A stretch of 35,076 bases of DNA from a virus (Duplodnaviria > Heunggongvirae > Uroviricota > Caudoviricetes). Under the pieces are notes generated by a model, which saw only the letters and a list, made by a program, of their open reading frames with translations, was not told the DNA's origin and searched no databases. The stretch's first letter is position 1, and each line of letters starts with the position of its first letter. A program made the translations under genes and the position numbers. The stretch is from the IMG/VR virus record IMGVR_UViG_2606217118_000004. One strand, given 5' to 3'. This document shows, in pieces, positions 11,272 to 35,076 of the stretch.

Positions 11272-12311
11272 TGAAAGAACATATCGCGCCAGGCGAAACC
11301 GTAACTGCAGAAGAAACTAAAAAACCCGTTGCGGAGGCTTTCAGCTTTGGTGATCCCATTCCTGTACTGGACCGCCGCGAACTGCTGGACTATGTGGAAT
11401 GCGTACAGATGGATCGCTGGTATGAGCCGCCCGTCAGCTTTGACGGACTGGCGCGCACCTTCCGCGCCGCCGTGCACCACAGCTCCCCGATCAGTGTTAA
11501 GCGTGACATTATCAGCAGTACCTATATTCCACATCGCCTTCTCAGCCAGCAGGCATTTACCCGTTTTGTGCAGGACTATCTGGTTTTTGGTAACGCCTAC
11601 CTGGAGAAACGCACGAACCGCTTTGGTGAAGTTATTTCGCTGGAGCCTGCACTGGCAAAATACACCCGACGCGGGCTTGACCTTGAAACATACTGGTTTG
11701 TGCAATACAGCCTGACGACACAGCCGTATCAGTTCACAAAAGGTAACGTCTTCCACCTGATGGAGCCGGATATCAACCAGGAGATTTATGGTCTGCCGGG
11801 TTACCTTTCTGCCATTCCGTCAGCTCTGCTCAACGAATCCGCCACGCTGTTCCGCCGCAAGTATTACATTAACGGCAGCCACGCAGGCTTCATCATGTAC
11901 ATGACCGACGCCGCACAGAACCAGGAGGATGTGAACAACATCCGCAAGGCAATGAAAAGTGCTAAAGGACCGGGCAACTTCCGCAACCTGTTTATGTACT
12001 CGCCTAACGGCAAAAAAGATGGCATTCAGATTATCCCGTTGTCGGAAGTCGCGGCGAAGGATGAATTTCTGAACATCAAGAACGTCAGCCGCGATGACAT
12101 GATGGCGGCTCACCGCGTACCGCCGCAAATGATGGGCATCATTCCCAACAACACTGGCGGCTTTGGGGATGTGGAAAAAGCGAGCCGTGTCTTCGTCCGC
12201 AATGAACTGATGCCCCTGCAAAAGCGACTGCAGGAGCTGAATGACTGGCTGGATGAAGAGGTTATCCGTTTTGAAGCCTATGACTTAGGACTTAAGGGCA
12301 AACGAAGCTGA
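11268..12311 (+). CDS. Q: Portal protein gpQ
   Basis: 347-aa ORF, last gene before cos as in P2. Confidence 0.85.
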   Translation: MMKEHIAPGETVTAEETKKPVAEAFSFGDPIPVLDRRELLDYVECVQMDRWYEPPVSFDGLARTFRAAVHHSSPISVKRDIISSTYIPHRLLSQQAFTRFVQDYLVFGNAYLEKRTNRFGEVISLEPALAKYTRRGLDLETYWFVQYSLTTQPYQFTKGNVFHLMEPDINQEIYGLPGYLSAIPSALLNESATLFRRKYYINGSHAGFIMYMTDAAQNQEDVNNIRKAMKSAKGPGNFRNLFMYSPNGKKDGIQIIPLSEVAAKDEFLNIKNVSRDDMMAAHRVPPQMMGIIPNNTGGFGDVEKASRVFVRNELMPLQKRLQELNDWLDEEVIRFEAYDLGLKGKRS

Positions 12312-12490: not shown

Positions 12491-12696
12491 TGCCCGCTTT
12501 ATGTAGTGGTTTTCATGCGCCTGCATGACATAAGCAAAAGCCCGCCATTCCTGGCGGGCCTCAGCTAAAACGATCCTCAAACGATCATGCGGATTCATGC
12601 GGCATAGTCATGCAGCACAATTCCTTTGCCCCACTATATCCTTTGTGGCAGAAATTGAGGAAAATGATTCATAAATACTCATATTTCGGAGGATAT

Positions 12697-13596
12697 ATGG
12701 CAGTTCTATTTTTATTTGGCGCAGGTGCGAGTTTTGGCAGCGGTCCATGTAGTCCATCCAATCCACCTCTTGGTAAAGATCTGCTTATCCGCATGCGTGA
12801 AAAAGGTGGAGTTGCTTCAACTATTGATGGCGCTCTATTGGAGAGTTTCATTGCAGATCCTGAACAAGGAATGATTAATTTTTTCAATGAACGAAATTGC
12901 GAGACAACTCACCTCCTAAAGCAGATGTGCGCCTATCTTGCACAATTTCGGGTCGAGAAAGAAAACACCTACATAAAACTGTTTAACCTATTAAAAAAAA
13001 GAAAAAACATATGTATGGCAACAACTAATTACGACCTATTAATTGAACAAGCTATATGCTCTGTTGGCTGTCTTGTTCAATATCACTCATCGAAGCGCAA
13101 TAGAAATAACATACCGGTATTAAAAATACATGGCTCAGTAAACTTCATACCAGTTGCAAATATCGTTAATATCGATTTCGAATTACCTGATTGCGAGAAC
13201 TCTGCAATATTCGATGGTCCAATTGATATTTACAACGATGAGCAAGACGTGATTGCATACTGCGAAAGTGATTCTGCCCTCTCACCCGCAGTTGCATTAT
13301 ATCATCCCAAAAAAAGCGTATTGCACTGCCCCTCATTTGTTAAGTATCAGCAGGAAGAGTTTCGTTCTGAGGTTGAACGTTCATCCAAGATATTCATTAT
13401 TGGACTTAAAATAAATCCAAATGATGAGCATATTTGGTCTGAAATTGAAAAAACTTCAGCCGACGTCTACATAGTAGACAAGGATAAAGAATCTACTATC
13501 ACCTGGGTTAATAGCTTGAGCAAAAAGAACATTTACCACATAGCTGATACTTTTGATGAATCGATTGTGAGAATTAAAAACATTCTGCAATTATAG
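12697..13596 (+). CDS. Standalone SIR2-like (ThsA-type) NADase-domain protein; candidate anti-phage cargo in the cos-A hotspot
   Basis: ORF track 12610..13596; start placed at the Met with a GGAGG RBS (MAVLFLFGAGAS...). Ordered motifs GAGAS, TTNYDLLIE, KIHGS and IFIIGLKINPNDEHI follow the SIR2_2/ThsA pattern. Visibly AT-rich; opposite strand to flanking phage genes. Confidence 0.6.
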   Translation: MAVLFLFGAGASFGSGPCSPSNPPLGKDLLIRMREKGGVASTIDGALLESFIADPEQGMINFFNERNCETTHLLKQMCAYLAQFRVEKENTYIKLFNLLKKRKNICMATTNYDLLIEQAICSVGCLVQYHSSKRNRNNIPVLKIHGSVNFIPVANIVNIDFELPDCENSAIFDGPIDIYNDEQDVIAYCESDSALSPAVALYHPKKSVLHCPSFVKYQQEEFRSEVERSSKIFIIGLKINPNDEHIWSEIEKTSADVYIVDKDKESTITWVNSLSKKNIYHIADTFDESIVRIKNILQL

Positions 13597-14287: not shown

Positions 14288-16675
14288 TCACGAATACCAC
14301 TGCCGCCATTTATCATCTTCCTGTAGCCGCTGGTTGCGGTAGAAAATGCGCAGCCCGGCCCCGGACGGAATGCTGCCGCCACGTAAAAGCAGATCCACCT
14401 CTGTTTCACTCGCTTCAAACCCTCTGGACCTCAACTCAGCGTCGAGCTGCTGGCGCTGCTGCTCGTTAACTTCCTGTTTGTACCCTTTCCGCCGTTTCGG
14501 TTTTACCAGCCTCAGCCTGGCTGTCAGCTCCCGCCGTTCCTTCGCACTCAGATCGTGAAGGTCGGGCAGCGCGTCAGTTTCTTCGGTTTCTGGTAATTCG
14601 CCCCCTGATTGGTTCAAAATTTCAACAGGGGGACAGTTATTGCCACGAGTCCAAGGGGCGCAAGCGCCCTGGTCGGCAGCCGCCTCCTGAACGTCAACGG
14701 CCTTACGAACCATTTTCCACTTCACTGCATGAGTGCAGATCTTGCCCTCTGCAATGGGTGACCAGATGCCATAAATACGAATACCGTGATCGCCATAGGC
14801 GGTTGGCTCTTCGTTGATTTCATAAGCGGTTCTGATGAGGTGATATTTGCGGGGAACCAGTACGCCGCCCTGCTTCATGATGTAGGTGGCAAAACAACCA
14901 GCATCAGCAGCAGCCAGGATGGCATCAAGGCGCGGGTTATCCAGTACCGGCGCACCTGCTTTTTTGTCACCCTGTTGCCTTGCCGCCTGACCAGCCAGCA
15001 ATCGCAGTTCACGGTAAGCCTGACGCCCCGGAATGCCAAAGAAGCGGAATTGCTGAACACGATGCAGAGACGCCCAGGCATTAACGTATTCAGCGTTATC
15101 ACGCAGGGATTTACCCGTTTCCTTACTGATCTCGCCAGCCAGACCACGCCCGTCAATATTCTTACTGATATATTTCGCAATGTAGCTTGTCGGCGTTCCT
15201 TTGCGCGGGTTTATCAGCTCAGACTTAAAGCGTGGCCCCGTGTTATTGCCCAGCTCCTCGCGGTCTTCTCGGATGGCAAACTTACGCAACAATGCAGTAA
15301 TGGCGCGGCGGTCTTTTTTGCGCATGAAACACAACAGGTGCCAGTGAACTGTGCCGTCATGATGCGGCTCAGCCACCCGCACGCCATACCAGCGCAACCC
15401 GGCTTTGTGCATAGCCTTACGAAATGCAGCAAACATGCCGACCAGATAATCGCTGCTTTGTCTTACTGTCGCGTTGGTCCAGGTCGGGTTTGGCCTGCCG
15501 TTATTTAGCGTGGAATGGAAACGTGACGGACAGGTGATGGTGTAGAAAACGGCGCAGTCACCACGCATTTCCGCGATAAGCTCCAGGCCTTTAACACAGG
15601 CCATCATCTCGTTGCGGCGATGCGCCGGGTTGCTGCTGCTGGCGTTTACCACATCCTCCATGTTCAGCGTGTCGCCGTCTTCGTTCACCAGTTCATGAGA
15701 ACGGAAAAACTCCAGCGACTTACGGCGCTGCTCACGTTTATGCATCACGGCTTCATAGCTGACATAGGGAGATGCTTTTTTGCTGACCAGGCAGACAGCA
15801 CGCAACTGCTCTTCCCGCCATTCGCAACGCATCTTCCATAATTTCCGATACCACCAGTCGGCGCACAGCATACGCGCCAGCGAACCCGGAATGAGTTCAT
15901 AAGGCACAGGTTTGCGGCGGTTTCTTTTCCGGCGGAGTTGCTCAAACGCAGGCGGTATGACATCCAGTCGCAGGGTTTCTGCAGCCACCTTTTCCCATGT
16001 CTTGCGGATTTCTTCTGGCTTAACATCATCGGAGGCGTACAAATCACCACAAGCGGCATCAAGACACATGCTCATATGCGCAGCGACAAGGGTAGACAGG
16101 CGTTTCACCTGATCCTGACTCATTTCAGGCAGGATCAGCAGACCGTCCAGCCCTTCATGGCTTGCCATAAAACGAAAAGATGCAGATAGCTGGCTGTCGC
16201 GTATATGCTCCAGTCGTTCCAGACATGGCTTAATCGTCTCACGCAAATAGCGGGAATAAGCCTTTGGCCTGCCCAGGCTGCTGAAATATTCAATACGTTG
16301 CATCAGCGGCTTGCTGATATGGGAAGGCTGGGCGTTGACGTCAGCCAGAATGACCATGTCTGGATTAAAACGCTGCTGCTCATGCGCCATCTTTGCCCGG
16401 CTAATGAGCTTATCCTGCTCCATTTCGCGTTGGACAGGATCACGGGATTCATTAAAGAAATAACGCTCCCAGACCTGATCACTCAGTGCCTCGCGGCGCA
16501 GTTGTTCCTGCTCGTTATCGGTAGCGTACAGAGTGATCAGGTTTGAAAGCGCAGAAACCGGCGCAACTTCCGCCGGGTCCAGATAAGGGTTAATGGCCTT
16601 TTTCGGGCTGTTCCATGAGAATGCTGCGGCGACCTTGTTAAAGCCGCTGCAGTTGTTCATATCAGCATGGCTCAT
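14288..16675 (-). CDS. A: Replication initiation endonuclease gpA (HUH rolling-circle initiator)
   Basis: 795-aa ORF with HUH-like motif (TVHWHLL) and paired tyrosines (YIAKYISK); P2-family position. Confidence 0.85.
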
Positions 16676-18816: not shown

Positions 18817-19326
18817 TCACAGCAAACCGAATGAAGCACCAAGGCCAGTCATGGTATCAACTGCACTCGCCATCGCCGGGTTAGCCTGTAAACGGGCCTG
18901 CAATGAAACAGCAGCCAGCGCCATCAGTCGTGTTACAGAGTTAATGCTGCTGATAGCATCACGACGACCTGCACTGGTTTTTACATTGCCAGATACCGCA
19001 CCTGCAGCAATACGCCCGATCTCTGCGGTTGCACTCATGACGTAATGCGGCAGTTTCTCTTTTGCTACCTCATTAATCGGTACACATGGCAGGCAGTGAA
19101 TCTGTGCCAGAAAACCATCTATCAGCGTTGAATCTTCAGTCAGATCGGTAAGCAGCCAGATTTCTGGCGCATTGAGCTGATGCGGTTGATCTGGGTTGAG
19201 TTTGTTTCGCAGAGTCTGGACATTCATTCCTGCACGTTCTGCCAGCTTCGCCATATTATGACGAAGTGCAAAAGCTCTACAGGCTTCATCAAAATGCGGG
19301 TGTTTGGAAATCTTATAATCAAACAT
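18817..19326 (-). CDS. cII: CII-like lysogeny establishment activator (phage 186 type)
   Basis: 169 aa, the length I recall for 186 CII; sits immediately downstream of the Apl-like gene in the lytic operon. Confidence 0.7.
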   Translation of the reverse strand: MFDYKISKHPHFDEACRAFALRHNMAKLAERAGMNVQTLRNKLNPDQPHQLNAPEIWLLTDLTEDSTLIDGFLAQIHCLPCVPINEVAKEKLPHYVMSATAEIGRIAAGAVSGNVKTSAGRRDAISSINSVTRLMALAAVSLQARLQANPAMASAVDTMTGLGASFGLL

Positions 19327-19711: not shown

Positions 19712-20350
19712 TTGATTATGAGTTTAATCAAGGCGGGGAATGATAGTGGTGGGCGCGATGCGATTAATAGGCTTATTAAGGCTTACAACTTCAGCTCACG
19801 ACAGCAGCTCTGCGAACATCTGGAAGTATCAAAAAGCACTATGGCTAACAGATACTTAAGGGATAGCTTTCCTGCCGAATGGGTAATCCAATGTGCCCTT
19901 GAAACAGGAGCTTCCCTTCTATGGCTGGCTACTGGTCAAGGAGATATGTATGCGTGTGAGAACGAAGAAATAAATCTCAAAAATGAACCTCCCGTCACTG
20001 TAAGACCACTTTCTAAGATCGTTGCTCCTAGCATCAAACGTGTTGAACTGAAGAACGGCGAACTGCAGCCAAGTGATGAAATTCTTCTTGATAGCAGCCT
20101 GCTCGATGGTGACTCATCCAACGCTTTATTTGTTAAAACAGCTAATGATAGCTTTGTAGTGGATACGTCTGTTAAACAAGTCAGTAATGGCTTCTGGTTA
20201 GTCGATATGGACGGAGTTAAAAGCATCGTCAAAATTGCGCGCATACCCGGAAACAAAATAGTAGTTAACCAAGATGACACTTCATTTGAATGTTCTGTAG
20301 ATGATGTGGAAGTCGTAGGACGTGCAGTCAAAGTAATCAAGAACCTCTAA
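19712..20350 (+). CDS. cI: CI-like immunity repressor (186 type, N-terminal helix-turn-helix)
   Basis: 212-aa ORF divergent from apl and directly upstream of int. Confidence 0.65.
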   Translation: MIMSLIKAGNDSGGRDAINRLIKAYNFSSRQQLCEHLEVSKSTMANRYLRDSFPAEWVIQCALETGASLLWLATGQGDMYACENEEINLKNEPPVTVRPLSKIVAPSIKRVELKNGELQPSDEILLDSSLLDGDSSNALFVKTANDSFVVDTSVKQVSNGFWLVDMDGVKSIVKIARIPGNKIVVNQDDTSFECSVDDVEVVGRAVKVIKNL

Positions 20351-20353
20351 CTT

Positions 20354-21394
20354 ATGACCATCAGAAAACAGCCGAACGGAAAATGGTTGTGTGAGTGCTA
20401 TCCCAATGGACGCAATGGTAAGCGCGTGCGTAAGCAATTTGCTACCAAAGGCGAAGCCATTGCGTTTGAAAGCTTCACAATGGAAGAAGTGAACAAAAAA
20501 CCATGGCTAGGGGAAAAGGAAGATCGGCGACATCTATCAGAATTAATTGAGCTGTGGTATTCCCTGTATGGTCAAACACTCGCAGACCCCAAGCGCCTCA
20601 TGGCGAAACTTAGAATTATCTGTAATGGTCTAGGCGATCCCATCGCCTCAGAACTGACAGCTGGTGAGTTTACGAAATACCGCGAAGCACGGTTAAAAGG
20701 TGAAGTACGAAATGAAGATGGCACGCTTATGTCGCCCGTTAAGCCCCGCACGGTAAATCTTGAACAGCGCAACCTATCATCTGTTTTTGGTACACTGAAA
20801 AAGCTGGGCCACTGGTCAGCCCCCAACCCGCTTGCTGGGCTGCCAACATTTAAAATTGCTGAGGGTGAATTGGCGTTCCTGACCCCGGAAGAAATTAAAC
20901 GTCTGCTGGATGCCTGTGCTGATTCTCAAAGCCCCAGTCTGCTGATGATTGCAAAAATATGCTTGGCCACCGGCGCACGCTGGAGCGAAGCCGAAAACTT
21001 ACAGAGTCATCAGGTATCAAAATACCGTATCACTTATACCAAGACTAAAGGAAAGAAAAACCGAACAGTGCCTATTTCAAAGGATTTATATGAAGAACTG
21101 CCTAAGAATAGGGGAAAATTATTTACACCTTGTAGGAAAGCTTTTGAACGTGCGGTTAAACGAGCTGGTATCGAGCTACCAGAAGGGCAATGCACACACG
21201 TATTACGACATACATTTGCAAGTCACTTTATGATGAATGGCGGAAACATACTGGTGCTGCGCGATATTCTGGGCCATGTCGATATAAAAATGACAATGAT
21301 TTACGCCCACTTCGCTCCCGACCATCTGGAAGATGCTGTAACCAAAAATCCTCTTGCTAACCTTGGATGGAGAAAATTAGAAAGTGCTTGTTAA
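20354..21394 (+). CDS. int: Tyrosine integrase (P2/186 type)
   Basis: 346 aa; C-terminal catalytic signature HVLRHTFAS ... LGH ... MIYAH. Confidence 0.85.
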   Translation: MTIRKQPNGKWLCECYPNGRNGKRVRKQFATKGEAIAFESFTMEEVNKKPWLGEKEDRRHLSELIELWYSLYGQTLADPKRLMAKLRIICNGLGDPIASELTAGEFTKYREARLKGEVRNEDGTLMSPVKPRTVNLEQRNLSSVFGTLKKLGHWSAPNPLAGLPTFKIAEGELAFLTPEEIKRLLDACADSQSPSLLMIAKICLATGARWSEAENLQSHQVSKYRITYTKTKGKKNRTVPISKDLYEELPKNRGKLFTPCRKAFERAVKRAGIELPEGQCTHVLRHTFASHFMMNGGNILVLRDILGHVDIKMTMIYAHFAPDHLEDAVTKNPLANLGWRKLESAC

Positions 21395-21500
21395 TAACTA
21401 TATCCAACAATACCCATGGATATCGTACTTACTTATCATAATATATTTTATATATATATGCCTTGAATTATATCTATGCGTATCAAAAAAAGGCTTTAAC

Positions 21501-22430
21501 ATGGATGAAAGGCCATTAACAAGTCAATACTTATTTAAACAATCACTTAGGATTCCTGTATTTTCAGCGATATACTTTGGTATATTTTCCTGGCTTGGAC
21601 ATTCCCCTCAATTTGATAGTGAGGGCTTTAATAATTTCATTGCAATTAGCAAGCTTCCTATCGCCTTACTTTCTTTGTCCATACCATTTGTTGCTGTCGT
21701 AGCAAACATACACCGCACAGTTCAAACAAACCGACAAATTGAGGAAACCAAGCAAAAGAATCTATCTGATAGCTACTATAGCCATCTAAAGTTCGTTACT
21801 GATTATTTCACCAATTTACCTAACAAAACCATTAAACGCGAACGTCATTATGGTACTAAAGAGATAAGTTATAAAATTAACTACCCAATACATCTATATA
21901 GATATATTTTCATAAATAGCTCACCAGAGAAGGGACGGCCTAAAAATACAGATAAAGAATACATACGTGAAGTAAATAATCACTGGGTTGATATACTAAA
22001 AAACCTAGAGAAGATAAATTCATCTAATCGTGGCTCTCAGTTTGACGAAGTTTTAATCCGTCAAATGCAATCTCTTCATTCAATAGAAAAACACTTATCC
22101 GAACTTAATCGAATGCTTTGCCTAACTCCCATGGAGTTAAATGAACATGCAACTTTATACTTTGATGGATATGAAATGATTACTAACTTCATGTCCAGCA
22201 TTGAACTTGGCGATACAATTGAAACCTACTTCAAATTTACCATTGATATTCTTGATATTACCGATAATTTCCTTTCATTCAAGGATGATGGCTCGTCTGG
22301 GCAAATCATTATACTAGCAAGATTACTGAAAGATAATAATCCAGCTATCTTTGATGAAATTGTAACAAACAAAGGGAAGGCTCAACCTTCGTTGACCTAC
22401 AATGGCGACAGATTGGCGACAGAGCATTAA
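21501..22430 (+). CDS. AT-rich hypothetical membrane-anchored protein; cargo gene between int and attR
   Basis: Track 21384..22430; the first 39 codons overlap int, so start placed at MDERPLTSQ. Two predicted transmembrane helices then a ~240-aa soluble domain; composition visibly AT-rich. Confidence 0.5.
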   Translation: MDERPLTSQYLFKQSLRIPVFSAIYFGIFSWLGHSPQFDSEGFNNFIAISKLPIALLSLSIPFVAVVANIHRTVQTNRQIEETKQKNLSDSYYSHLKFVTDYFTNLPNKTIKRERHYGTKEISYKINYPIHLYRYIFINSSPEKGRPKNTDKEYIREVNNHWVDILKNLEKINSSNRGSQFDEVLIRQMQSLHSIEKHLSELNRMLCLTPMELNEHATLYFDGYEMITNFMSSIELGDTIETYFKFTIDILDITDNFLSFKDDGSSGQIIILARLLKDNNPAIFDEIVTNKGKAQPSLTYNGDRLATEH

Positions 22431-22515
22431 AAATGAGTAAAACGGACAAACACAAGATAATACTAACTTGCTGATTTTAAACGCAAGTTAATGTTTTTGC
22501 TATAGTGAAAATGGT

Positions 22516-22560
22516 ATGTAGGAATTTCGGACGCGGGTTCAACTCCCGCCAGCTCCACCA
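22516..22560 (+). other. ssrA: 45-nt copy of the tmRNA (ssrA) 3' end ending in CCA; att core at the prophage/satellite junction
   Basis: ATGTAGGAATTTCGGACGCGGGTTCAACTCCCGCCAGCTCCACCA matches the E. coli ssrA 3' terminus as I recall it; sequence upstream of 22516 is not ssrA-like, so this is only the core fragment. Confidence 0.7.
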
Positions 22561-22595
22561 CTTGCTCTTCCGGATACGTCCGGAGAAATCCTGAA

Positions 22596-22629
22596 AGCCC
22601 GCATGGCACAAGCTTTGCGGGCTTTTTTG
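22596..22629 (+). terminator. Intrinsic terminator just downstream of the ssrA core copy
   Basis: AGCCCGCA...TGCGGGCT hairpin followed by TTTTTT. Confidence 0.45.
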
Positions 22630-22672
22630 TGTCTACCGTTGTCCGAGGATATCCAGCTAAATCCAGTGATTA

Positions 22673-22744: not shown

Positions 22745-23938
22745 GTGGCAAGAACGACACGCCCCCTGACCAACACAGAGGTTCTGCGCGCTAAAGCGTT
22801 AGAAAAGGATCTAACGTTGCATGATGGCGATGGTCTTTTTCTGCTCGTTAAAACGAACGGTAAGAAGTTATGGCGTTTCCGTTATCAACGTCCAGCAACA
22901 AAGCAGCGAACAATGATGGGGCTAGGTGCCTTCCCCACCCTTTCACTTGCTGACGCCCGACGGTTAAGAGCGAATTACCTTTCCTTGTTAGCCAACGGAA
23001 TTGACCCGCAAATTCAAGCTGAAATTGCAGAGGAACAGCAGCAAATCGCACTGGACAGTATTTTTTCAACCGTCGCCGCTAACTGGTTCCAGCTTAAAAG
23101 CAAAAGCGTTACCCCTGATTACGCGAAAGACATTTGGCGTTCACTAGAAAAAGATGTATTCCCTGCCATCGGTGAGATCCCAGTTCAGCAAATCAAAGCC
23201 CGAATGCTTGTTGAAGCCCTAGAGCCTATCAAAGCACGTGGGGCGCTAGAGACGGTACGTCGTCTGGTGCAGCGTATTAATGAGATAATGATTTACGCCG
23301 TAAACACAGGTCTGATTGATGCCAATCCAGCATCAGGTATTGGGATGGCCTTTGAGAAACCTAAAAAGCAAAACATGCCTACGCTCCGGCCAGAAGAATT
23401 ACCGAAGCTGATGCGTTCTTTGATTATATCTAATCTGTCTGTTCCGACACGTTGTCTTATTGAGTGGCAACTACTGACCCTTGTACGCCCTTCTGAAGCC
23501 TCTGGTACTCGGTGGGCAGAGATCAATCTCGATGCAAAGCTCTGGACGATTCCAGCCGAACGGATGAAGGCCAAACGTGAGCACATTGTTCCTCTATCTC
23601 CTCAGGCATTAGAAATTCTGGAAGTGATGAAACCAATCAGTGCTCATCGTGAACATGTTTTTCCGAGCAGAAATGACCCTAAACTGCCAATGAATAGCCA
23701 GACTGCTAATGCAGCATTAAAACGTATTGGATATGGTGGAAAACTTGTCGCACATGGTATGCGTTCAATTGCCAGTACAGCGATGAACGAGGCAGGTTTA
23801 AATCCAGATGTGATTGAATCAGCATTGGCACATACCGATAGAAATGAAGTAAGAAAAGCATACAATCGCACCACCTATCTGCCACAGCGAATAACACTTA
23901 TGAATTGGTGGGGAGATTTTGTAAGGAACCTTAAATAA
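22745..23938 (+). CDS. int: P4/CP4-57-type tyrosine integrase
   Basis: 397 aa; located ~185 bp downstream of the ssrA 3' end, the arrangement I recall for intA of CP4-57. Confidence 0.85.
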   Translation: MARTTRPLTNTEVLRAKALEKDLTLHDGDGLFLLVKTNGKKLWRFRYQRPATKQRTMMGLGAFPTLSLADARRLRANYLSLLANGIDPQIQAEIAEEQQQIALDSIFSTVAANWFQLKSKSVTPDYAKDIWRSLEKDVFPAIGEIPVQQIKARMLVEALEPIKARGALETVRRLVQRINEIMIYAVNTGLIDANPASGIGMAFEKPKKQNMPTLRPEELPKLMRSLIISNLSVPTRCLIEWQLLTLVRPSEASGTRWAEINLDAKLWTIPAERMKAKREHIVPLSPQALEILEVMKPISAHREHVFPSRNDPKLPMNSQTANAALKRIGYGGKLVAHGMRSIASTAMNEAGLNPDVIESALAHTDRNEVRKAYNRTTYLPQRITLMNWWGDFVRNLK

Positions 23939-23986
23939 TATATATTCATCTAATTAGCGCCCTTATCAAGTTAGGGCGCGATTAAC

Positions 23987-24490
23987 TTAAAGAAGTTTCA
24001 TTGTTTTCATTGTATCTTTAAAATCCTTAAATCCATCAAATAAAATGATGAAATTTGCTAGCGTCACCGATGGAGCATCAATAGTCATACTAGTACCTTT
24101 TATAAAGGTATGAGCGGCAGCATTTCTTGGGGTCTTGAGTGATGTCAAAGTGGCTTTTAATGTAAAAAGTTTTTGTTGTGTTGCTTGTTTTTCAATTTTT
24201 TCAATTGAGCTCAATCCTATAACTTGGGCTAACATTTTTTTAAAATTGTCCTCATAATGGAAATTATAATTCCGTTTTATTTCATTTTGGATTTTTTTTA
24301 TGTGTTCAGGGTTAGTTATATTTTTTTTACAAACTCCTTCAATTATGTTATCCATGGTTACCTCTATCCATCCGCACAACTCCATAAGAGCAAGCTTAGA
24401 ATAAAACAACTGTTTTTTAGGATCGGTTTCCTTAGTAAAGAGGCGATCTAACTCTTTCAATGTTTTATGAATTGTCCCCTTAACTATCAT
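23987..24490 (-). CDS. HEPN-domain protein (predicted RNase), second gene of the hotspot operon
   Basis: Track 23987..24502 begins at a TTG; the ATG at 24490 lies 4 nt after the DUF262 stop. Candidate Rx4H HEPN motif in ...TPRNAAAHTF...; AT-rich. Confidence 0.55.
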   Translation of the reverse strand: MIVKGTIHKTLKELDRLFTKETDPKKQLFYSKLALMELCGWIEVTMDNIIEGVCKKNITNPEHIKKIQNEIKRNYNFHYEDNFKKMLAQVIGLSSIEKIEKQATQQKLFTLKATLTSLKTPRNAAAHTFIKGTSMTIDAPSVTLANFIILFDGFKDFKDTMKTMKLL

Positions 24491-24494
24491 GATT

Positions 24495-25589
24495 TCACCC
24501 AAATATTCTTAGAGCGGCATCTAACCTTGCGTCAACTTTTTCCTTACTGGCTACACCACCGCTCAGAAAAGCCGTTGATAATGAATTATCTGCCCTTAAA
24601 TCATCAAAACGCTGGCTTAAACTAGCGCTAGTTTCTTGCTCTAAAAGATCAATATTTTTTGCTACACCATATAAAAGGGCTTCCATTAAAGAACTACCAA
24701 GTCTCATTGGATTGGGTTGTAATATTTTATTCCACACCAGACCTACGGTCCTCTTAAATAAATCCTCTTTTAGAGCTATATCTGACTTTCCTAAATGACG
24801 GTTTTTCTTCATATAGCCATTGAGAAATTTAGATAAAGTGCCTTTATACTTATCTTTGTTATCGTAAAATGAGAAAAATCGCAAGATAAGTTCGATATAC
24901 TTAAACCTATTCGAATTCTTGGTATTCAAGCCAGCTATTTTTTGCCACTCATCAATTTCATTCATTTCTTTGAGGGCATTATTAAACTCACCGCTAAAAA
25001 TACAATTCCTAATTTCTTGGTTATTAAGTCTTGTGCCTCCAGAATTCAACCGATGAAATATAGTAAACAAATACTCCATATGTGATAGTTTAGAATGATC
25101 ACATCTAAGCACAGTGACTGGAATTGTTAAGTTTTGCACTCTCTTATAAAAATTATTCAATTCAGTCTTTTGTTTATGAAACTCTGATACACGAACACCA
25201 GATATTTTACTATCAATATCATCGAGCTTAGACAGTTGCCAGCTTGGGTCAGATAAAAATCTGATTATTGACGTCATTCGCTGCAACCCATCAATTACCT
25301 GCCATTCCTGACTATTATAATCAAAACTAAAACACATGCTAGGAATAGGAAGCTGTTTAATTAAGGAGTCAATAAATCGTGTTTGAGCTGATGAATTCCA
25401 TACAATGTCTCTTTGAAAATCTGGTTGAATATTCAAAGTTCCTTCATTGTACATGCGAACTAAATCAGAGCAGGATCTCAACTCATTATAGGCAATCACA
25501 TCACTTGGCGGATGTTGCTCACTATCATCTTCATAATAAGATTCATCTTCTAAATTCTCAATATCTTCAAGAGTAATGTCAGCAGTCAT
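24495..25589 (-). CDS. DUF262 (ParB-like NTPase domain) protein, first gene of the hotspot operon
   Basis: Track 24495..25622; start placed at MTADITLEDIE (GGAG RBS with 5-nt spacer). DUF262 signature motifs QPDFQRDIVW, VIDGLQR and FHRLNSGG; no HNH/DUF1524-like nuclease motif seen. Confidence 0.65.
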   Translation of the reverse strand: MTADITLEDIENLEDESYYEDDSEQHPPSDVIAYNELRSCSDLVRMYNEGTLNIQPDFQRDIVWNSSAQTRFIDSLIKQLPIPSMCFSFDYNSQEWQVIDGLQRMTSIIRFLSDPSWQLSKLDDIDSKISGVRVSEFHKQKTELNNFYKRVQNLTIPVTVLRCDHSKLSHMEYLFTIFHRLNSGGTRLNNQEIRNCIFSGEFNNALKEMNEIDEWQKIAGLNTKNSNRFKYIELILRFFSFYDNKDKYKGTLSKFLNGYMKKNRHLGKSDIALKEDLFKRTVGLVWNKILQPNPMRLGSSLMEALLYGVAKNIDLLEQETSASLSQRFDDLRADNSLSTAFLSGGVASKEKVDARLDAALRIFG

Positions 25590-25906
25590 ATAATCTCCAA
25601 TATGAAATTTAAAAAAGCTCATCTATCCTTTAGATGAGCAAATAGAACTTCCTTTCATCTGCAACTCGATAATATTTAACTATCGCCTTGCAAACTCCCA
25701 CTAATTTTAGCGGCATTGTTACCCTGGTTCAATTAATTATTTCCCCCCCCATTTGCTGCACTTTCACTGAGCATCGCCCCCAACACAAAAAGCCCAAACA
25801 AAAGCGTATGAAAAAATGAGGCTTTCAAGCAAAATTATAGCTTGAGTTTGTTCATCCAAAAGCGACTTCGCATGTATTAGAAAATTCAGCATATACATTG
25901 CGCGCA

Positions 25907-25925
25907 GTGCTTTCCCCGCCTCGCC
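25907..25925. other. Satellite cos site (reverse complement GGCGAGGCGGGGAAAGCAC)
   Basis: Exact 19-nt match to the P2/P4 cohesive-end sequence as I recall it; lies between the hotspot cargo and psu. Confidence 0.7.
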
Positions 25926-26089
25926 CGCCCGCTTTGCGGGGCGGGTTTAATGCAGTTTCACTGACACGCTCAGGCCGCGCCGGGAATGGCGCGGTCTGCA
26001 GAAAATGAGGCAGGAAAACGCATGCAAAGCCATGCACCTTATCGATGCATGGCTTTTTTCAGTAAAAACGGGCGGATTTTCGGGGAGTT

Positions 26090-26662
26090 TTACACAGACT
26101 GATGTGATGCCAGTTGCGCACTTTTACGCGAAAAAATCATGTTCTGCGCAGGAGTGAATTTTTCACGGCTGTCATCCACCGAAGCCGCGTCAGGCCTGAA
26201 TCCGATGGCCGTTAAAATGTCGCTATCCTGTGCGGAATAATTAATTTTTTCCCCCTTCGCAAGCCAGGACAGAAGGGCTTCACGCAGGGCATCTGTGGCA
26301 CACTGTATGGCACAGTTTCGGGCAATGGCCGTCAGTTCACTGTAGCCCATCAGCTCCGGTGCCAGTGCGGCCGCCAGTACTGTGCCGTGCTGCTGCATAA
26401 AATCATTCAGCCGGTCGCGGATGCTGATGTGCTGAACGGCTTCATGCGAACGAATATAACGACCGGCGGCCTGATTCACCTGCCATTTTCTGACTTCGAT
26501 AATATTGCGTAATTCGTCCAGGCGACTGACGTTTCTGCCTTCTCCTGACAGAAGCCGCAGATATTCCTGTTCGGCCGCAGCCAGCTCATTTTTGCGTTGC
26601 AGCCATGCTGCTTTGTTATTCTGACAGGTGTCAAAGGCCTGCTGTAAGGCAGTGCTTTCCAT
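26090..26662 (-). CDS. psu: Polarity suppression protein Psu
   Basis: 190 aa, the P4 Psu size; last gene of the psu-delta-sid operon, adjacent to cos. Confidence 0.8.
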   Translation of the reverse strand: MESTALQQAFDTCQNNKAAWLQRKNELAAAEQEYLRLLSGEGRNVSRLDELRNIIEVRKWQVNQAAGRYIRSHEAVQHISIRDRLNDFMQQHGTVLAAALAPELMGYSELTAIARNCAIQCATDALREALLSWLAKGEKINYSAQDSDILTAIGFRPDAASVDDSREKFTPAQNMIFSRKSAQLASHQSV

Positions 26663-26735
26663 CGTTATCTCTTTCTCATCATGCTGAAGAATAAAAATAC
26701 GGTGTGCGGCGACGGCCGGGGTTAACCGGCAGCCC

Positions 26736-27236
26736 TCATTCCAGACGCAGCGAATATGATTGTGTTTTTAAGCGTACTGGCGGCAGTTCCTGTTTTTCAT
26801 GCAGGCTTTCTGCCAGTTCGTCCGGCGTGACCGGGCGGACAATAAAACGGTTGATGGTCTGAAGCGTTTTAAACACCAGACCACAGCCCGGATCCGTGCA
26901 CACATAAAAACGCTCGGTGACTTCCTGAGACAGACGCCGCGATGTTCTTGACAGTGCAAGGCCTTTACATCTCCGACAACAATATCCGGTAACAAGCATT
27001 CTTTTCTGGCGTTTCATACTGCCGGAGGCTGACGTCAGTGAATCGCGGTATCTCTGTTTGCCTGAAATGTATTCCATTCCTGAATCTTTACAGTCAGAGA
27101 AAAAGCTTTCACTCGCTTCAAATGTCGCAGAGCAATAAATATTCCGGCACTGTGCAATCATTATCTTGGTGCCATCGTCCATGAAATGTGCGCGACGGGT
27201 GTGAGCAACATGTCCACACGACGGGCAGTAAATCAT
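26736..27236 (-). CDS. delta: Delta late transcription activator (tandem Ogr-type zinc fingers)
   Basis: 166 aa; two Ogr-like cysteine clusters (MIYCPSCGH...QCRNIYC and YCCRRCKG...CTDPGCG). Confidence 0.8.
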   Translation of the reverse strand: MIYCPSCGHVAHTRRAHFMDDGTKIMIAQCRNIYCSATFEASESFFSDCKDSGMEYISGKQRYRDSLTSASGSMKRQKRMLVTGYCCRRCKGLALSRTSRRLSQEVTERFYVCTDPGCGLVFKTLQTINRFIVRPVTPDELAESLHEKQELPPVRLKTQSYSLRLE

Positions 27237-27967
27237 GACAGCAGTCCTCTGGCCTTAAGCTCTGCACCCTGCTGGTCTATTTTGTCCTGCCACACCTTGC
27301 GCTGTGCCGGTGTGCCTGCCACCTCATAATCCATGTGCGGGAGTGTTGCCGCTGACAGTCCGGTCAGCCGGAGAACCGGCTCGCCGGTGAGGCTGATTTG
27401 CATCTGTTTAATTTTCTGTTCCAGCGATGATTTCACCTGCTGCATGACAGCCTTTTCCGGTGCGACGTAGCCCTGATGGCCGGTGGTGTTGGCGAGCGGA
27501 TTTTCCTGTACCAGAATGCTCAGATGCATTGCCCGGACAAGCGCCTCACAGGTTTCATTCAGGGCGTGTTCCAGCTCATGCTCTGCATACAGACTCAGAA
27601 GGTGATAATGTGCCTTCCGGTAGGCGGTGGCCGTGCTGTCACACGCCCCTTTCAGGCGTTCACGTTCGAAATTCAGCACCACGGCCAGATTGTCATATTC
27701 CTGTACCAGCTCCCGGCGTGCCACGCGCTCAATGTGGCGCTGTTTCAGCTCGTCGCTCAGGACACCACCGGCTGCACGAAAGGCCGTGCGCCAGTCGTCA
27801 GCGTCGTTTCCGTCGGCCTGCGTCAGCGCATTTTTTTCCTGCTCTGCCCGTTCAATGGCCGTGACGGTCTCATCCATCAGGCGGGCGTTCTCAAGGTGGG
27901 CGGCTCTGGCCTTTTCCAGTTGTGCCAGTGCGGGTTGCAGATATTCAGGGATGGTGTTGTCAGACAT
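27233..27967 (-). CDS. sid: Capsid size determination protein Sid
   Basis: Track 27233..28033; the internal ATG at 27967 (MSDNTIPEY...) has a GAGGAG RBS and gives 244 aa, the P4 Sid size. Confidence 0.75.
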   Translation of the reverse strand: MSDNTIPEYLQPALAQLEKARAAHLENARLMDETVTAIERAEQEKNALTQADGNDADDWRTAFRAAGGVLSDELKQRHIERVARRELVQEYDNLAVVLNFERERLKGACDSTATAYRKAHYHLLSLYAEHELEHALNETCEALVRAMHLSILVQENPLANTTGHQGYVAPEKAVMQQVKSSLEQKIKQMQISLTGEPVLRLTGLSAATLPHMDYEVAGTPAQRKVWQDKIDQQGAELKARGLLS

Positions 27968-28039
27968 TTTCCGGCTCCTCGTCACTTCAGGTTGAGAAAA
28001 TTGTGACGTACACCGGACAGCAACACGACGCATTGCAGA

Positions 28040-28057
28040 TGTGCCAGCCCTGACACA
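28040..28057. promoter_or_regulatory. TGT-N12-ACA dyad (TGTGCCAGCCCTGACACA), candidate Delta/Ogr site of the sid late promoter
   Basis: Dyad lies ~80 bp upstream of the sid start, consistent with a -55 activator site. Confidence 0.45.
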
Positions 28058-28136
28058 GGAGACTCATCCTCAGACCGGCAAGCCAGGAAAAGGTCGCAGG
28101 AAAAACCGGCTTACTGTTTGTTTTTTTATATTTTAC

Positions 28137-28240
28137 TGTTCACCTCTGTTCACCTTAAGAAAAAAGATAAGTAATACAGTAAGTTAAAGGGTGAACAATC
28201 GCAGTAATGACTGTTCACCGTCTGTTCACCACTGTTCACC
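28137..28240. repeat. Cluster of six TGTTCACC octamer iterons (one inverted); candidate satellite ori
   Basis: Octamers at about 28137, 28147, 28190 (inverted), 28212, 28223 and 28233; the same octamer recurs in the crr repeats after alpha. Confidence 0.55.
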
Positions 28241-28566
28241 CGTTGATGGGCTTTTTGTGCTGTTTATTACTTTTTATTTTTATTAATTCACTGAAATAAA
28301 TAAGAAAAAACAATTTGTATTTCACTATAATTTTTTCCAGCTCCTTCCAGAGCGTTTTAAAGCTATCTGGCGCTAATGTACAAAAAATACACAGCCATTG
28401 TAAGGCTGCCGGAACAAATCCCCCCTGTTGCGTCTGCTGAAAATATTCACAAAATAAAGCGCTACCCGAAGCCGGACGGACTTATCCGGTGCTGTATGGA
28501 CATTAACGAGGTAGCCCGATGCAAGCTGTTTTTTCTTCCCCGTCTCCCGCCCCTGTGACGCCACTG

Positions 28567-28785
28567 ATGCCGCTGCCGGACATCACACAGGAGCGTTTTT
28601 TACGTCTTCCGGAAGTGATGCACCTGTGCGGCCTGTCACGCTCGACCATCTATGAACTCATCCGTAAGGGGGAATTTCCGCCGCAGGTGAGTCTTGGCGG
28701 TAAAAATGTGGCCTGGCTGCACTCTGAAGTCACTGCATGGATGGCCGGGCGCATTGCCGGACGCAAACGGGGGTACGACGCATGA
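28567..28785 (+). CDS. alpA: AlpA-family helix-turn-helix regulator (excisionase-like)
   Basis: Track 28519..28785; ...[51 protein letters not shown] is typical of AlpA-type proteins. Confidence 0.7.
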
Positions 28786-28878
28786 TGATGCCCGCTCTGC
28801 AAAAACTCCCTTTTTCTGGCTTGCCTTTTTCCGGCATTTGCGGATATAGTTTTTCCGCTGCCGCAAAATCGGCAGCCG

Positions 28879-29173
28879 GGCGTGAGAACCCGAGCAATCT
28901 AACGGCGACATATGACGCGCCATGCGTCTTTTTTTGTGTCGCAATCAACGCCACAGAGCGCCAGATTATGGTGTGGTGTGTGGTCAGTCGTGCAGATGGC
29001 ATTCCGTGCATCCTGCCCGCGTCCGCTCATTATGCCGCAGAGTCAATGGTAGCTCAGGCGGGGCAGCCTCCGGGCTGGCCGGTATCCGTTAGAGCCGGTA
29101 TTCTCACCCCCGTCTGGGCTATCGCCATCGAGCGTGAGAACTCCGGCGATAGCGTAACCTGCTATCTAACGGA
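28879..29173 (+). ncRNA. Candidate P4-type RNA immunity region: direct repeats (seqA/seqC-like) flanking a complementary segment (seqB/CI-RNA-like)
   Basis: GCGTGAGAAC...ATCTAACGG occurs at ~28879-28904 and ~29133-29173, and CCGTTAGAG...TTCTCAC at ~29086-29108 is largely complementary to them. The long ORF over this region looks spurious. Confidence 0.3.
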
Positions 29174-29183
29174 GGCTGCCATC

Positions 29184-29381
29184 ATGGCTACAACCCTTAC
29201 CCCCTCACACCCTGAATTTGTCTTTGTGTTTGCGGCTGTCCGTCGCGCAGACCGTCATCCCCGTATCTGTATGCTTCGCACCGTCGCCGGTGATGAACGC
29301 AGCGCCCGCCGTTCCCTTGTCCGTGACTATGTGCTCTCCCTTGCTGCCCGTCTGCCGGTGGTGGAGGTGTCCCGTGCGTAA
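29184..29381 (+). CDS. Small hypothetical protein of the satellite early operon (65 aa)
   Basis: ATG with a GGAGG RBS ([12 protein letters not shown]...). The ORF track extends this frame to 28737, but that upstream part has no start signal and covers the RNA-repeat region. Confidence 0.45.
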
Positions 29382-29661
29382 TAAAAAAGCCCCTCAGACC
29401 GTCTCAGCGCGTCATGACGCCCGTGAACACCTCAGCATTGAGGCTTACCATAAGCTCAACCGCGCCAGCGCCGTATCCCAGTTTGTTGGGGGTGATTTGA
29501 TTCACCGTGAACTCTCCGGCCTGCATCAGCTCTACATTCCGCATATTTTCAGCTACCTGAATGAAGATATTGATTTTGTGCTGAATGAGCTGAAAGCCAA
29601 AGGCCTGTGCCGCGATTTTCTCGCCCAGCAGAAAGACCGGGGAGACAGGACGCATGTTTGA
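29374..29661 (+). CDS. Small hypothetical early protein (~95 aa), possibly the epsilon-position gene
   Basis: GTG start with GGAGG 6 nt upstream, overlapping the previous stop; the track lists a longer version from 29218. Epsilon assignment is by position only. Confidence 0.35.
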
Positions 29662-30109
29662 TTTTCCCCAGCCCGGTGAGATTTACCGTTCTGCCGGTTT
29701 TCCCGATGTGGCCGTGGTCGGCATTCTGGAAGACGGTATTCCGTGGGAAATGCCGTACCGCTGTCCGGAAATTGTCTGGAACCCGTACCGCCGAAAATTC
29801 AGTATCCTTGTGCGTATCCTCACTGACGGGCGCACCACAGACATCCCGCTGGGGCGTTTTCTGCGGGAATTTACCTGTGACCGTCCTGACCTGTTCAGAC
29901 GCAGCCCCGTAAACCGGCATGCGGTACTGAAAGAAATGGCCGGAGACCCGGAATTACAGAAATGGCGGGAGAAATATCTGGATATTTACCCGCAGGACAC
30001 TGTTCCGGCCAGCCGGGCGGCACCGGTGGCGCGGGAATGGCGGGAAATTCCCCGCACGGAGCCTGACCCGGAAATCACCCCGGATAACAGTTACCGCAAT
30101 TATCTGTAA
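29654..30109 (+). CDS. Hypothetical early protein (151 aa)
   Basis: Overlaps the preceding ORF end by 8 nt; length matches the orf151 I recall in P4 upstream of alpha. Confidence 0.5.
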   Translation: MFDFPQPGEIYRSAGFPDVAVVGILEDGIPWEMPYRCPEIVWNPYRRKFSILVRILTDGRTTDIPLGRFLREFTCDRPDLFRRSPVNRHAVLKEMAGDPELQKWREKYLDIYPQDTVPASRAAPVAREWREIPRTEPDPEITPDNSYRNYL

Positions 30110-30244
30110 TTAAAAAACGACACCCGAAAAATTAAATGTGCGTATTCGCGCAGGGATACGCACGTCTTCAGGAGACGCAGATATGCCTTATCAGTTAATG
30201 CAACCGGCACGGAATGCAGTCATCTGTCACAGGGAGGAAAACAA

Positions 30245-30565
30245 ATGAAAACACCCTTACCGCCCGTCTTACGCGCTGCCCTTTACCGTCGCGCTGTCGC
30301 CTGTGCCTGGCTGACCGTGTGCGAACGTCAGCACCGCTACCCGCATCTCACCCTTGAATCACTGGAGGCGGCCATCGCCGCTGAGCTGGAGGGCTTTTAT
30401 CTGCGCCAGCACGGTGAGGAAAAAGGGCGTCAGATAGCCTGTGCCCTGCTGGAAGATTTAATGGAATCCGGCCCCCTGAAGGCCGCGCCGTCGCTGTCCT
30501 TTCTCGGGCTGGTTGTGATGGATGAACTCTGTGCCCGTCACATAAAAGCGCCGGTACTGCACTGA
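30245..30565 (+). CDS. Hypothetical early protein (106 aa)
   Basis: ORF immediately upstream of alpha. Confidence 0.5.
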
Positions 30566-30579
30566 AGGAGAACAACACC

Positions 30580-32913: not shown

Positions 32914-32920
32914 CCCACCT

Positions 32921-32946
32921 GACCGGCATCTGCCGGTCTTTTTTTA
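32921..32946 (+). terminator. Intrinsic terminator after alpha
   Basis: GACCGGCA-TC-TGCCGGTC hairpin followed by seven T residues. Confidence 0.5.
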
Positions 32947-32960
32947 TCCCTGAATTCCCC

Positions 32961-33264
32961 GAAGGTGAACAATCCACTGTTCACCCTTCACCGTATATTC
33001 ACCCGTTATCACACTGAAATTAAAAGAGAAAAACGAAAGGTGAACAGTGTGAACAATCAAATCAAAAAAAACTTTTTTCTCCCTGTGTGATTTCAGCACG
33101 GGGGATTAATCACCGGTATGAGTCACACCGGCAGAATGCCGGAGGTGAAGAATCGAATGTTCACCCTTCACCCATTATTCACCACCTATCCAACTGAAAT
33201 AAAAGGAGAAAACAGAAAGGTGAACAGTGTGAACAGTTCTTTCGAAAAAAAATTTTTTTCCTGT
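32961..33264. repeat. crr-like cis replication region: two ~125-bp direct repeats carrying TGTTCACC/GGTGAACA octamers
   Basis: Repeat 1 ~32961-33086 and repeat 2 ~33141-33264 share long blocks (GGTGAA..TGTTCACCCTTCACC..ACTGAAAT.AAAAG.GAAAA..GAAAGGTGAACAGTGTGAACA) and lie directly after alpha as in P4. Confidence 0.7.

Positions 33265-33999: not shown

Positions 34000-35076
<1,077 letters not shown>

Follow-up and report, generated by a model that had tools for sequence, protein, structure and literature searches.

A single gene between int and att at the right end of a P2-family prophage

We analysed 35,076 nucleotides from a virus of the class Caudoviricetes (IMG/VR record IMGVR_UViG_2606217118_000004), and this whole stretch is called the window in the following. 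The left two thirds of the window are a P2-family prophage with phage 186-type control genes, and the subject of this study is the gene at its right end, located between the integrase gene (int) and the attachment (att) site, hereafter the cargo gene. The immunity repressor gene (cI), int and the cargo gene follow one another on the same strand (Table 1). The integrase shares 92–94% amino acid identity with the integrases of Fels-2, RE-2010, Cartapus, SEN8 and SopEPhi, which are P2 relatives integrating at ssrA, the gene of the transfer-messenger RNA (tmRNA). The att core is a 3'-end fragment of ssrA. The alignment to Rfam family RF00023 reaches model position 374 of 374, ends at 22560 and has a high posterior probability over the last ~40 nt, and the 25-mer GGTTCAACTCCCGCCAGCTCCACCA (22536–22560) is present as a single copy in the window. 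Neither a complete tmRNA gene (ARAGORN) nor a second att copy was found within the window, which does not include the prophage's left end.

A single plus-strand open reading frame (ORF) fills the int-att interval, starting from a GTG codon at 21384 or an ATG codon at 21501 and ending with the stop codon at 22428–22430. Its GC content is 33.8% (31% at third codon positions); the corresponding values of int are 45.8% (42%), and the part of the prophage on its left has a GC content of 53%. With this base composition, 348 open codons would arise by chance with a probability of ~8e-12, and 2000 shuffles gave open runs of at most 169 codons vs. the 348 observed. All parts of the gene are under purifying selection, with an overall ratio of nonsynonymous to synonymous divergence (dN/dS) of 0.08–0.18. 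The cargo gene is thus real. The sequence-only reading of this DNA had described a strongly AT-rich gene wedged between int and an ssrA core serving as the right-hand att site; the ORF list, the GC figures, the unique 25-mer and the alignment to the tmRNA 3' end bear out this description.

The int-att interval is a slot for exchangeable cargo

Alignment of six int-att intervals delimits an exchangeable cassette of ~1.05 kb. Similarity to the relatives is lost ~35–40 nt short of the int 3' end (window positions 21352–21359; megablast matches stop at query positions 1641–1648), and each cassette therefore supplies the last few residues of Int together with the int stop codon. The right border is a conserved phage attP arm of ~115 bp, in which two direct Int arm-type repeats are kept in relatives with different cargo. 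By our own count, each repeat agrees with nine of the 11 positions of the reverse complement of YAYCGCCAYTY, the arm consensus given in the 186 record. This arm includes the stop codon of the ORF and the nine codons before it, and the repeats thereby also encode the final residues N-G-D-R-L-A-T-E-H (22400–22430). The conserved phage backbone hence supplies the stop codon of the cargo gene, and many homologues end in G-D-x-L-A-A-E-H because the 3' end of the ORF falls within the conserved arm. The borders are situated inside int and the Int arm sites, which explains how homologous recombination can exchange the cargo and leave integration intact.

The content of the slot varies among closely related prophages. 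It is empty in Fels-2, where 117 bp separate the int stop codon from the annotated att core, and in P2, where the 3' end of int overlaps the P' arm. The slot of 186 contains Orf69 (CP69), an 83-residue repeat protein; the statement of the sequence-only reading that int abuts attP in P2 and 186 thus holds for P2 (and Fels-2) and fails for 186. RE-2010 and Cartapus carry a 401-residue RES-like protein at this place, and SopEPhi carries orfY. Beside 80–97% identical integrases we found GapS1, an anti-phage dCTP deaminase, the RES-like protein, a 222-residue membrane protein, IS5, nothing at all, or very divergent alleles of the window protein's family. Among 14 E. coli loci with this type of integrase, chosen as the top hits plus even steps down the match ranking and hence not at random, five contain a member of the window protein's family, which is the commonest occupant in this small sample. 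The unrelated 222-residue protein, GapS1 and the anti-phage dCTP deaminase occupy two loci each, and the RES-like protein, IS5 and an empty slot account for one locus each. The alleles of the family in this slot are only 25–44% identical to the window protein and equally divergent among themselves, while the neighbouring integrases are 90–97% identical. The window allele itself is present in 14–16 of 5426 complete E. coli genomes, and an unverified record of a Klebsiella prophage contains it with 99.6% identity.

Two other arrangements in the slot deserve mention. The 222-residue protein (WP_001083625.1; locus L002, 4670–5338, and locus L037, 3819–4487) has three hydrophobic segments and no Pfam match, and represents a second uncharacterised membrane protein in this hotspot. 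A Cronobacter sakazakii locus (L011, 7121–8650) contains two cargo genes, the first encoding a family member and the second a 509-residue protein with 56% identity to the GapS1 of locus L003.

The cargo gene is a horizontally acquired accessory gene in a swappable slot. The earlier suggestion of a moron-type insertion in a variable position agrees with the different cargo found beside 80–97% identical integrases and with the empty slot of Fels-2, and the gene is not a core gene of all ssrA-integrated relatives. Under the definition of Hendrix, it resembles a moron in its absence from relatives and its deviant GC content, and departs from one in lacking a detectable promoter and a terminator of its own. 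The slot has already been described: in 2026 the de Sousa/Rocha group, building on Rousset et al. (2022), listed the int-att interval among the defence hotspots of P2-like prophages, as a minor one that was delimited with the help of DefenseFinder and PADLOC hits (Nucleic Acids Research, gkag898; PMC13586616). In that study, eight unknown genes were picked at random from P4 hotspots, and six of them conferred protection against phages (PMC13586616). The cargo protein family is uncharacterised.

Gene start and predicted topology of the cargo protein

The gene most likely starts at GTG 21384 and not at ATG 21501, which is the start called by PGAP at an identical locus. The GTG codon stands at the identical position in all five close homologues with available DNA, and distant homologues (25–45% identity) start with an ATG that overlaps the int stop codon by 4 or 11 nt or lies a few nucleotides downstream of it. 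Of the 29 homologues from a word-based search, 27 possess an N-terminal extension of equal length that includes a hydrophobic helix and, as a conserved residue, Glu28, and the 39 residues keep their length and hydrophobic character in homologues down to 25–40% identity. The dN/dS of this extension is 0.2–0.3 in diverged pairs and 0.66 in the closest pair. A profile without functional annotation in PHROGs, phrog_17460, aligns over its full length with the long form (E 1.2e-156, residues 4–332 vs. profile positions 2–343 of 343). The short form of 309 residues, beginning at Met40, reflects either an error in start calling or possibly a second, internal start codon; Met40 is at least 90% conserved in the close family and not in the wide family. 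The RefSeq model of the protein therefore appears to be N-terminally short by 39 residues and to lose one membrane helix.

The sequence-only reading had predicted two N-terminal transmembrane (TM) helices. With the start moved to GTG 21384, hydropathy and the AlphaFold2 model predict three, and three hydrophobic segments precede the signature motif (Table 1) in 42 of 60 diverse family members. Five Lys/Arg residues are found in the loop of residues 33–56, none in the loop of residues 73–87, and five directly after TM2, so that under the positive-inside rule the N-terminus would be outside and the large C-terminal domain cytoplasmic. The protein thus most likely has three membrane helices, with its C-terminal domain predicted in the cytoplasm. 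In the AlphaFold2 model (mean predicted local distance difference test score 81.6), TM2 runs on as a single 54-residue helix (residues 90–143), followed by a mixed α/β domain. We found no signal peptide, enzyme motif or exported domain in the cargo protein.

A conserved membrane module precedes a fast-evolving cytoplasmic domain

The conservation of the protein is unevenly distributed. Across 60 diverse members, L45, P58, H110 and Q114 are invariant, and at least 90% conservation was observed for Q48, L50, F51, W70, G81, F85, P92, L96, R111, T112, T115, Q118, I119, K125, N126, D129, H134, K136 and Y172. The mean column entropy is 1.2–2.2 bits at residues 40–143 and 2.8–3.2 bits in the N-terminal extension and residues 144–348. 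The core evolves under a dN/dS of 0.02–0.05, similar to int, and the C-terminal domain shows a 4–8 times higher dN and a dN/dS of 0.12–0.21; these region-wise values come mainly from the three pairs formed by the window's gene and those of loci L020 and L028, with dS saturated in several pairs. TM2 is conserved on every face. The helix of residues 49–69 and the stalk have one conserved face each, with the conservation moment reached in 0 and 35 of 2000 shuffles, respectively. Together, these patterns are compatible with helices packed in a bundle or with a surface for oligomerisation.

No polar residue is invariant past residue 146 among the 60 members, and the C-terminal domain is therefore very unlikely to be an enzyme. 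Since this domain is not enzyme-like and the membrane part is conserved, the latter is the plausible effector.

Homology searches and distribution of the family

Pfam and NCBIfam searches with the full cargo protein gave no family match. Searching Pfam with the 60 diverse members and with the core segments of eight members at E ≤ 10 produced scattered and inconsistent sub-threshold matches (DctQ, DUF3099 and others) and no SLATT or Abi family. A profile search of the PDB sequences returned designed coiled coils and low-complexity helices only. The sequence-only reading had seen no recognisable motif in the soluble domain and had proposed a remote-homology search on a predicted structure. The domain indeed has no Pfam, NCBIfam or PDB match and no catalytic signature, and the structural search was likewise uninformative: Foldseek comparison of the AlphaFold2 model gave a best E of 0.37 against the PDB, with a non-significant CorA match (probability 0.57), and a best E of 0.066 against the viral structures of BFVD. 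The family profile aligned by hhalign with probabilities of 0.3% to P22 SieA, 0.2% to RexB and 0.1% to RexA, and the cargo protein has no homology to 186 Orf69 or to the 222-residue slot protein. No paper mentioning the cargo protein was found under the accessions WP_231539624, WP_001676483 and phrog_17460.

PADLOC (2.0) reported a weak match of residues 55–163 to its CBASS "2TM effector" model PDLC00691 (E 2e-4). We rejected a CBASS or retron 2TM (SLATT-like) effector, as PDLC00691 and PDLC02912 each match one of the 60 members. At every Fels-2/186-type locus examined, the neighbours of the cargo gene are int and attP, with no cyclase or reverse transcriptase gene; one Cronobacter locus adds a GapS1-like gene.

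The family is large. The word-based search retrieved 29 clusters, all from Enterobacterales, and an exhaustive profile search retrieved 962 representatives at 50% identity with E ≤ 1e-3, 433 of them with E ≤ 1e-10. Named members in both searches are all "hypothetical", those of the profile search being from Klebsiella, Proteus and Providencia. Other prophage edges that harbour members were seen in Budvicia and Xenorhabdus, and in Pseudomonas chlororaphis members lie beside umuDC-like genes; the family-motif scan of genome contigs returned seven loci only. Every family locus inspected has a phage or prophage context.

A tblastn search of phage genomes located the conserved module in tailless Vinavirales prophages of ~14–15 kb in Vibrio cyclitrophicus, where one end of the element holds the family gene in direct contact with a LexA/S24-type repressor gene (L033, 3230–4957; L035, 3350–5023). 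The module is also present in gp02 of the filamentous phage VALG_phi6 (inovirus). These carriers belong to other viral realms than the P2-like prophage. Profile comparisons confirm the relationship with these Vibrio and inovirus proteins (hhalign 97.4–97.5%, E ~1e-11; hmmsearch 1e-13 to 1e-18). The placement next to a repressor in the Vibrio prophages mirrors the cI-int-cargo order of the P2-like prophage. Those Vibrio prophages possess a defence-enriched accessory locus (PMC11630473).

Expression in the lysogen

The cargo gene lies on the strand of cI and int, and its start overlaps the int stop codon. A consensus scan found no convincing σ70 promoter upstream of it and no plus-strand terminator-like site between cI and 22800; the same scan also missed the hairpin of the native ssrA terminator, which in the integrated state is the first strong terminator downstream of cI, int and the cargo gene. 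Given the strand, the overlapping start, the missing promoter and this first terminator, the cargo gene is most likely the third gene of a lysogenic operon that begins with cI. The repressor gene is annotated by PGAP as "phage repressor protein CI" at an identical E. coli locus. The 186 record annotates a corresponding operon, running from pL/pE through cI and int to Orf69, with a predicted terminator beyond attP. For a P2-like prophage of Salmonella, transcription of the repressor and integrase genes was seen under every condition tested (PMC7067206). From this arrangement we infer constitutive low-level expression of the cargo gene in the lysogen through translational coupling to int.

A probable role in protection against other phages

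The cargo protein probably protects the lysogen from other phages. We take this view because the identifiable alternates in the slot, GapS1 and dCTP deaminase, are anti-phage genes; because the int-att slot is a published minor defence hotspot with exchangeable cargo; because the conserved module recurs beside repressors in unrelated temperate viruses; and because alleles in the same slot are so divergent beside nearly identical integrases. For the mechanism, our tentative preference is abortive infection by membrane depolarisation through a one-chain sensor-effector, which would make the lysogen resistant to other phages. The variable cytoplasmic domain would sense a phage product or an infection cue and switch the conserved membrane module by oligomerisation or opening. 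The switched module would dissipate the membrane potential and thereby abort the infection before progeny release, in effect as if λ RexA and RexB were fused in one protein.

A wider proposal extends this mechanism to the whole family, and we hold it to be doubtful. The ~960 clusters at 50% identity might form a widespread and previously unrecognised family of single-protein membrane immune devices, in which a conserved three-helix effector is joined to a diversifying cytoplasmic sensor. Such devices would have spread via the lysogeny operons and accessory slots of P2-like tailed, tailless tectivirus-like and filamentous viruses. The family would then be the cross-realm equivalent of λ Rex in a single piece and, among native genes, the one found most often in Fels-2/186-type int-att slots.

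Several observations weigh against a protective sensor-effector. The protein is not homologous to defence or exclusion proteins of validated function; the PADLOC support consists of the weak 2TM match in one of 60 members; Pfam offers no SLATT or Abi match at E ≤ 10; and hhalign to RexB, RexA and SieA stays below 1%. The dN/dS of the C-terminal domain is well under 1, positive selection is not demonstrated, and its fast evolution could reflect relaxed constraint. The hotspot location is suggestive only, as such slots also hold non-defence cargo. The AT-rich composition could make the cargo gene a target of H-NS silencing. The oligomer, the trigger and the membrane-permeabilising step are all inferred.

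The sequence-only reading had pointed to lysogenic conversion or superinfection exclusion as frequent functions of genes in such positions, which for the cargo gene would be a conjecture. The main rival is superinfection exclusion in the style of P22 SieA or T4 Imm, in which an inner-membrane protein would block the DNA-delivery conduit of incoming phages without cell death. A predicted three-TM inner-membrane protein from a lysogenic operon would suit this role. P22 SieA is likewise a three-TM inner-membrane prophage protein, and its sequence types are extremely divergent (PMC10883804). This divergence is reminiscent of that among the alleles in the slot. The small conserved periplasmic loop (G81, F85) of the cargo protein, together with its TM helices, could touch the conduit or a host membrane factor. 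However, the protein lacks SieA homology (hhalign 0.3%), its predicted periplasmic exposure amounts to only ~12 + 15 residues, and two thirds of it form a large variable cytoplasmic domain that is not obviously needed for an entry block. SieA is a protein of 162–164 residues with its own promoter and without a large soluble domain, whereas the cargo protein is about twice as long with a cytoplasmic domain of 200–240 residues; the block of the ejection conduit by SieA was shown experimentally. Other cargo of the slot (dCTP deaminase, GapS1) acts as cytoplasmic defence and not at DNA entry. On balance we regard exclusion as unlikely.

An accessory benefit other than phage defence, such as stress or envelope adaptation, competition with plasmids or bacteria, or another lysogenic conversion, appears rather unlikely as well. 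Morons at prophage ends are functionally heterogeneous, SopEPhi and phiCTX having virulence cargo. No defence model matches consistently across the family, and most genes in the variable loci of the Vibrio prophages stayed unannotated (PMC11630473). On the other hand, the protein is free of a signal peptide, an enzyme motif and an exported domain, its variable part is predicted to be cytoplasmic, the family is confined to phage or prophage contexts at all loci inspected, and the identifiable alternates in the slot are anti-phage genes.

A role in the life cycle of the prophage itself is improbable. The protein might be tethered to the membrane and modulate Int, excision or the lysis-lysogeny decision; alternatively, it might act in timing, like a holin, or in addiction. 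Such a role would be in keeping with its presumed translational coupling to int, the overlap of its 3' end with the Int arm-binding sites and the position of its relatives directly after the repressor in the Vibrio tailless prophages. The gene is nevertheless dispensable, as the slot is empty in Fels-2 and some E. coli relatives, and the functional phages RE-2010, Cartapus and SopEPhi have unrelated genes there. P2 lysis genes are located elsewhere in the genome. A pair of isoforms, as known from dual-start holins, could arise through Met40, which the close family conserves; we dropped this idea because the residue is unconserved in the wider family. A decaying or silent remnant, as AT-rich foreign DNA without its own promoter and the shortened PGAP call might suggest, is effectively refuted by the improbable 348 open codons, by the purifying selection on every part of the gene, strongest in the core, and by intact full-length homologues in hundreds of clusters.

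Neighbouring elements in the window

Directly after the ssrA core, a P4-like satellite occupies window positions 22745–33000, in tandem with the P2-family prophage as a potential helper; the two use one common attachment site. The host gene csiD/glaH is found at 34099, beyond the satellite. The int-psu hotspot of the satellite carries a complete PD-T4-2 defence system (23987–25622, minus strand), which is AT-rich too (31–39% GC). In E. coli 503440 (NZ_CP025881.1; L001, 7289–13121), the element next to an identical cassette and att is a second P2-like prophage, represented by its ogr, D and tail genes, and not a P4-like satellite; this arrangement is a tandem poly-lysogeny at ssrA.

Within the P2-family prophage, a plus-strand gene at 12610–13596 encodes a protein of 328 residues whose SIR2-like matches are weak (Pfam SIR2_2 6e-5, slightly under the gathering score; PADLOC SIR2 and PDC-S25 ~1e-5). 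It is located between the portal gene gpQ and replication gene A, the canonical tin/old defence hotspot of P2, and the prophage therefore probably has a second cargo gene.

Table 1. Positions of the features in the window.
Feature	Position	Strand	Evidence or remark
Terminase (prophage)	9505–11271		
Portal (prophage)	11268–12311		
Replication gene A (prophage)	14288–16675		
CII (prophage)	18817–19326		
186-type CI immunity repressor	19712–20350	+	Pfam Phage_CI_repr 8e-33, Phage_CI_C 1e-40
Fels-2/186-type tyrosine integrase (int)	20354–21394	+	Pfam Int_N 4e-29, Phage_integrase 3e-25
Exchangeable cargo cassette, ~1.05 kb	21353–22399	+	Alignment of six int-att intervals; borders are the conserved int body (left) and the attP arm (right)
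Cargo gene, favoured long form, 348 residues, GTG start	21384–22430	+	11-nt overlap with the int stop
Cargo gene, short form, 309 residues, ATG (Met40), 930 bp	21501–22430	+	PGAP call at an identical locus, WP_231539624.1
Predicted TM helix 0 (residues 13–32), long form only	21420–21479	+	Kyte-Doolittle peak 2.38; AlphaFold2 helix 12–34
Predicted TM helix 1 (residues 57–72)	21552–21599	+	AlphaFold2 helix 49–69; preceded by conserved cytoplasmic loop PLTxQxLF (residues 44–51)
Predicted TM helix 2 (residues 88–107), most conserved segment	21645–21704	+	Kyte-Doolittle 2.17; mean column entropy 1.22 bits
Predicted juxtamembrane collar and stalk helix (residues 108–143)	21705–21812	+	Signature N-I-H-R-T-x-Q-T-x-x-Q-I ... 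K-N-x-x-D ... H-x-K
Predicted fast-evolving cytoplasmic α/β domain (residues 144–348)	21813–22427	+	Without recognisable fold or conserved polar/catalytic residues
Conserved phage attP arm, ~115 bp	22400–22515	+	Conserved in alignment columns 1770–1890 between loci whose cargo differs
Two direct Int arm-type repeats, CAATGGCGACA / GATTGGCGACA	22400–22421	+	TGGCGAC at 22403 and 22414
ssrA (tmRNA) 3'-end fragment, att core, prophage right end	22516–22560	+	Rfam RF00023
Native ssrA terminator hairpin and U-run	22594–22629	+	Minimum free energy and centroid folds of 22425–22640, z = -5.0
P4-like satellite integrase	22745–23938		
PD-T4-2 B subunit (HEPN)	23987–24502	-	PADLOC 9e-64
PD-T4-2 A subunit (GmrSD_N/ParB-like)	24495–25622	-	PADLOC 2e-162
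Psu (satellite)	26090–26662		
Delta (satellite)	26736–27236		
Probable Sid (satellite)	27233–28033		
C4/CI-type antisense RNA and isrK (satellite)	28844–29129		
Alpha primase (satellite)	30580–32913		

Comparison with known systems and implications

Like the other cargo of the published P2 int-att hotspot, where closely related prophages carry different genes including several known defence systems, the cargo gene varies between near relatives; unlike those systems, it is not meaningfully recognised by PADLOC 2.0. The closest functional parallel may be λ RexA/RexB. In both cases the gene of a prophage membrane protein accompanies that of the immunity repressor, in one operon in λ and most likely so here, and a cytoplasmic sensor activates a membrane effector collapsing the potential, here as a proposal. 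The cargo protein is, however, one polypeptide vs. two, it combines three predicted TM helices and a large cytoplasmic domain vs. the 144-residue RexB, and it has no sequence relationship to either Rex protein (hhalign below 1%). RexB has four TM helices. The CBASS and retron 2TM effectors share with the predicted cargo protein a pair of adjacent TM helices that continue into a helical extension, whereas the cargo protein has the HRTxQT signature, an extra N-terminal TM helix and no adjacent cyclase or retron reverse transcriptase. Orf69 (CP69) of 186 is the last gene of the lysogenic operon, the place presumed for the cargo gene too, on the same strand between int and attP, but this repeat-rich soluble protein of 83 residues bears no similarity to the cargo protein.

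The signature NIHRTxQTxxQI, which can be mutated, and the natural series of divergent alleles in an identical context would provide a ready system for studying the phage specificity of the proposed sensor domain. If the proposed function is true, the cargo protein would stand for a family of single-gene defence or exclusion systems that is both new and abundant, and would help to fill the unannotated part of the P2 and P4 hotspots. One protective module would then be common to tailed, tailless and filamentous temperate phages via their lysogeny operons.

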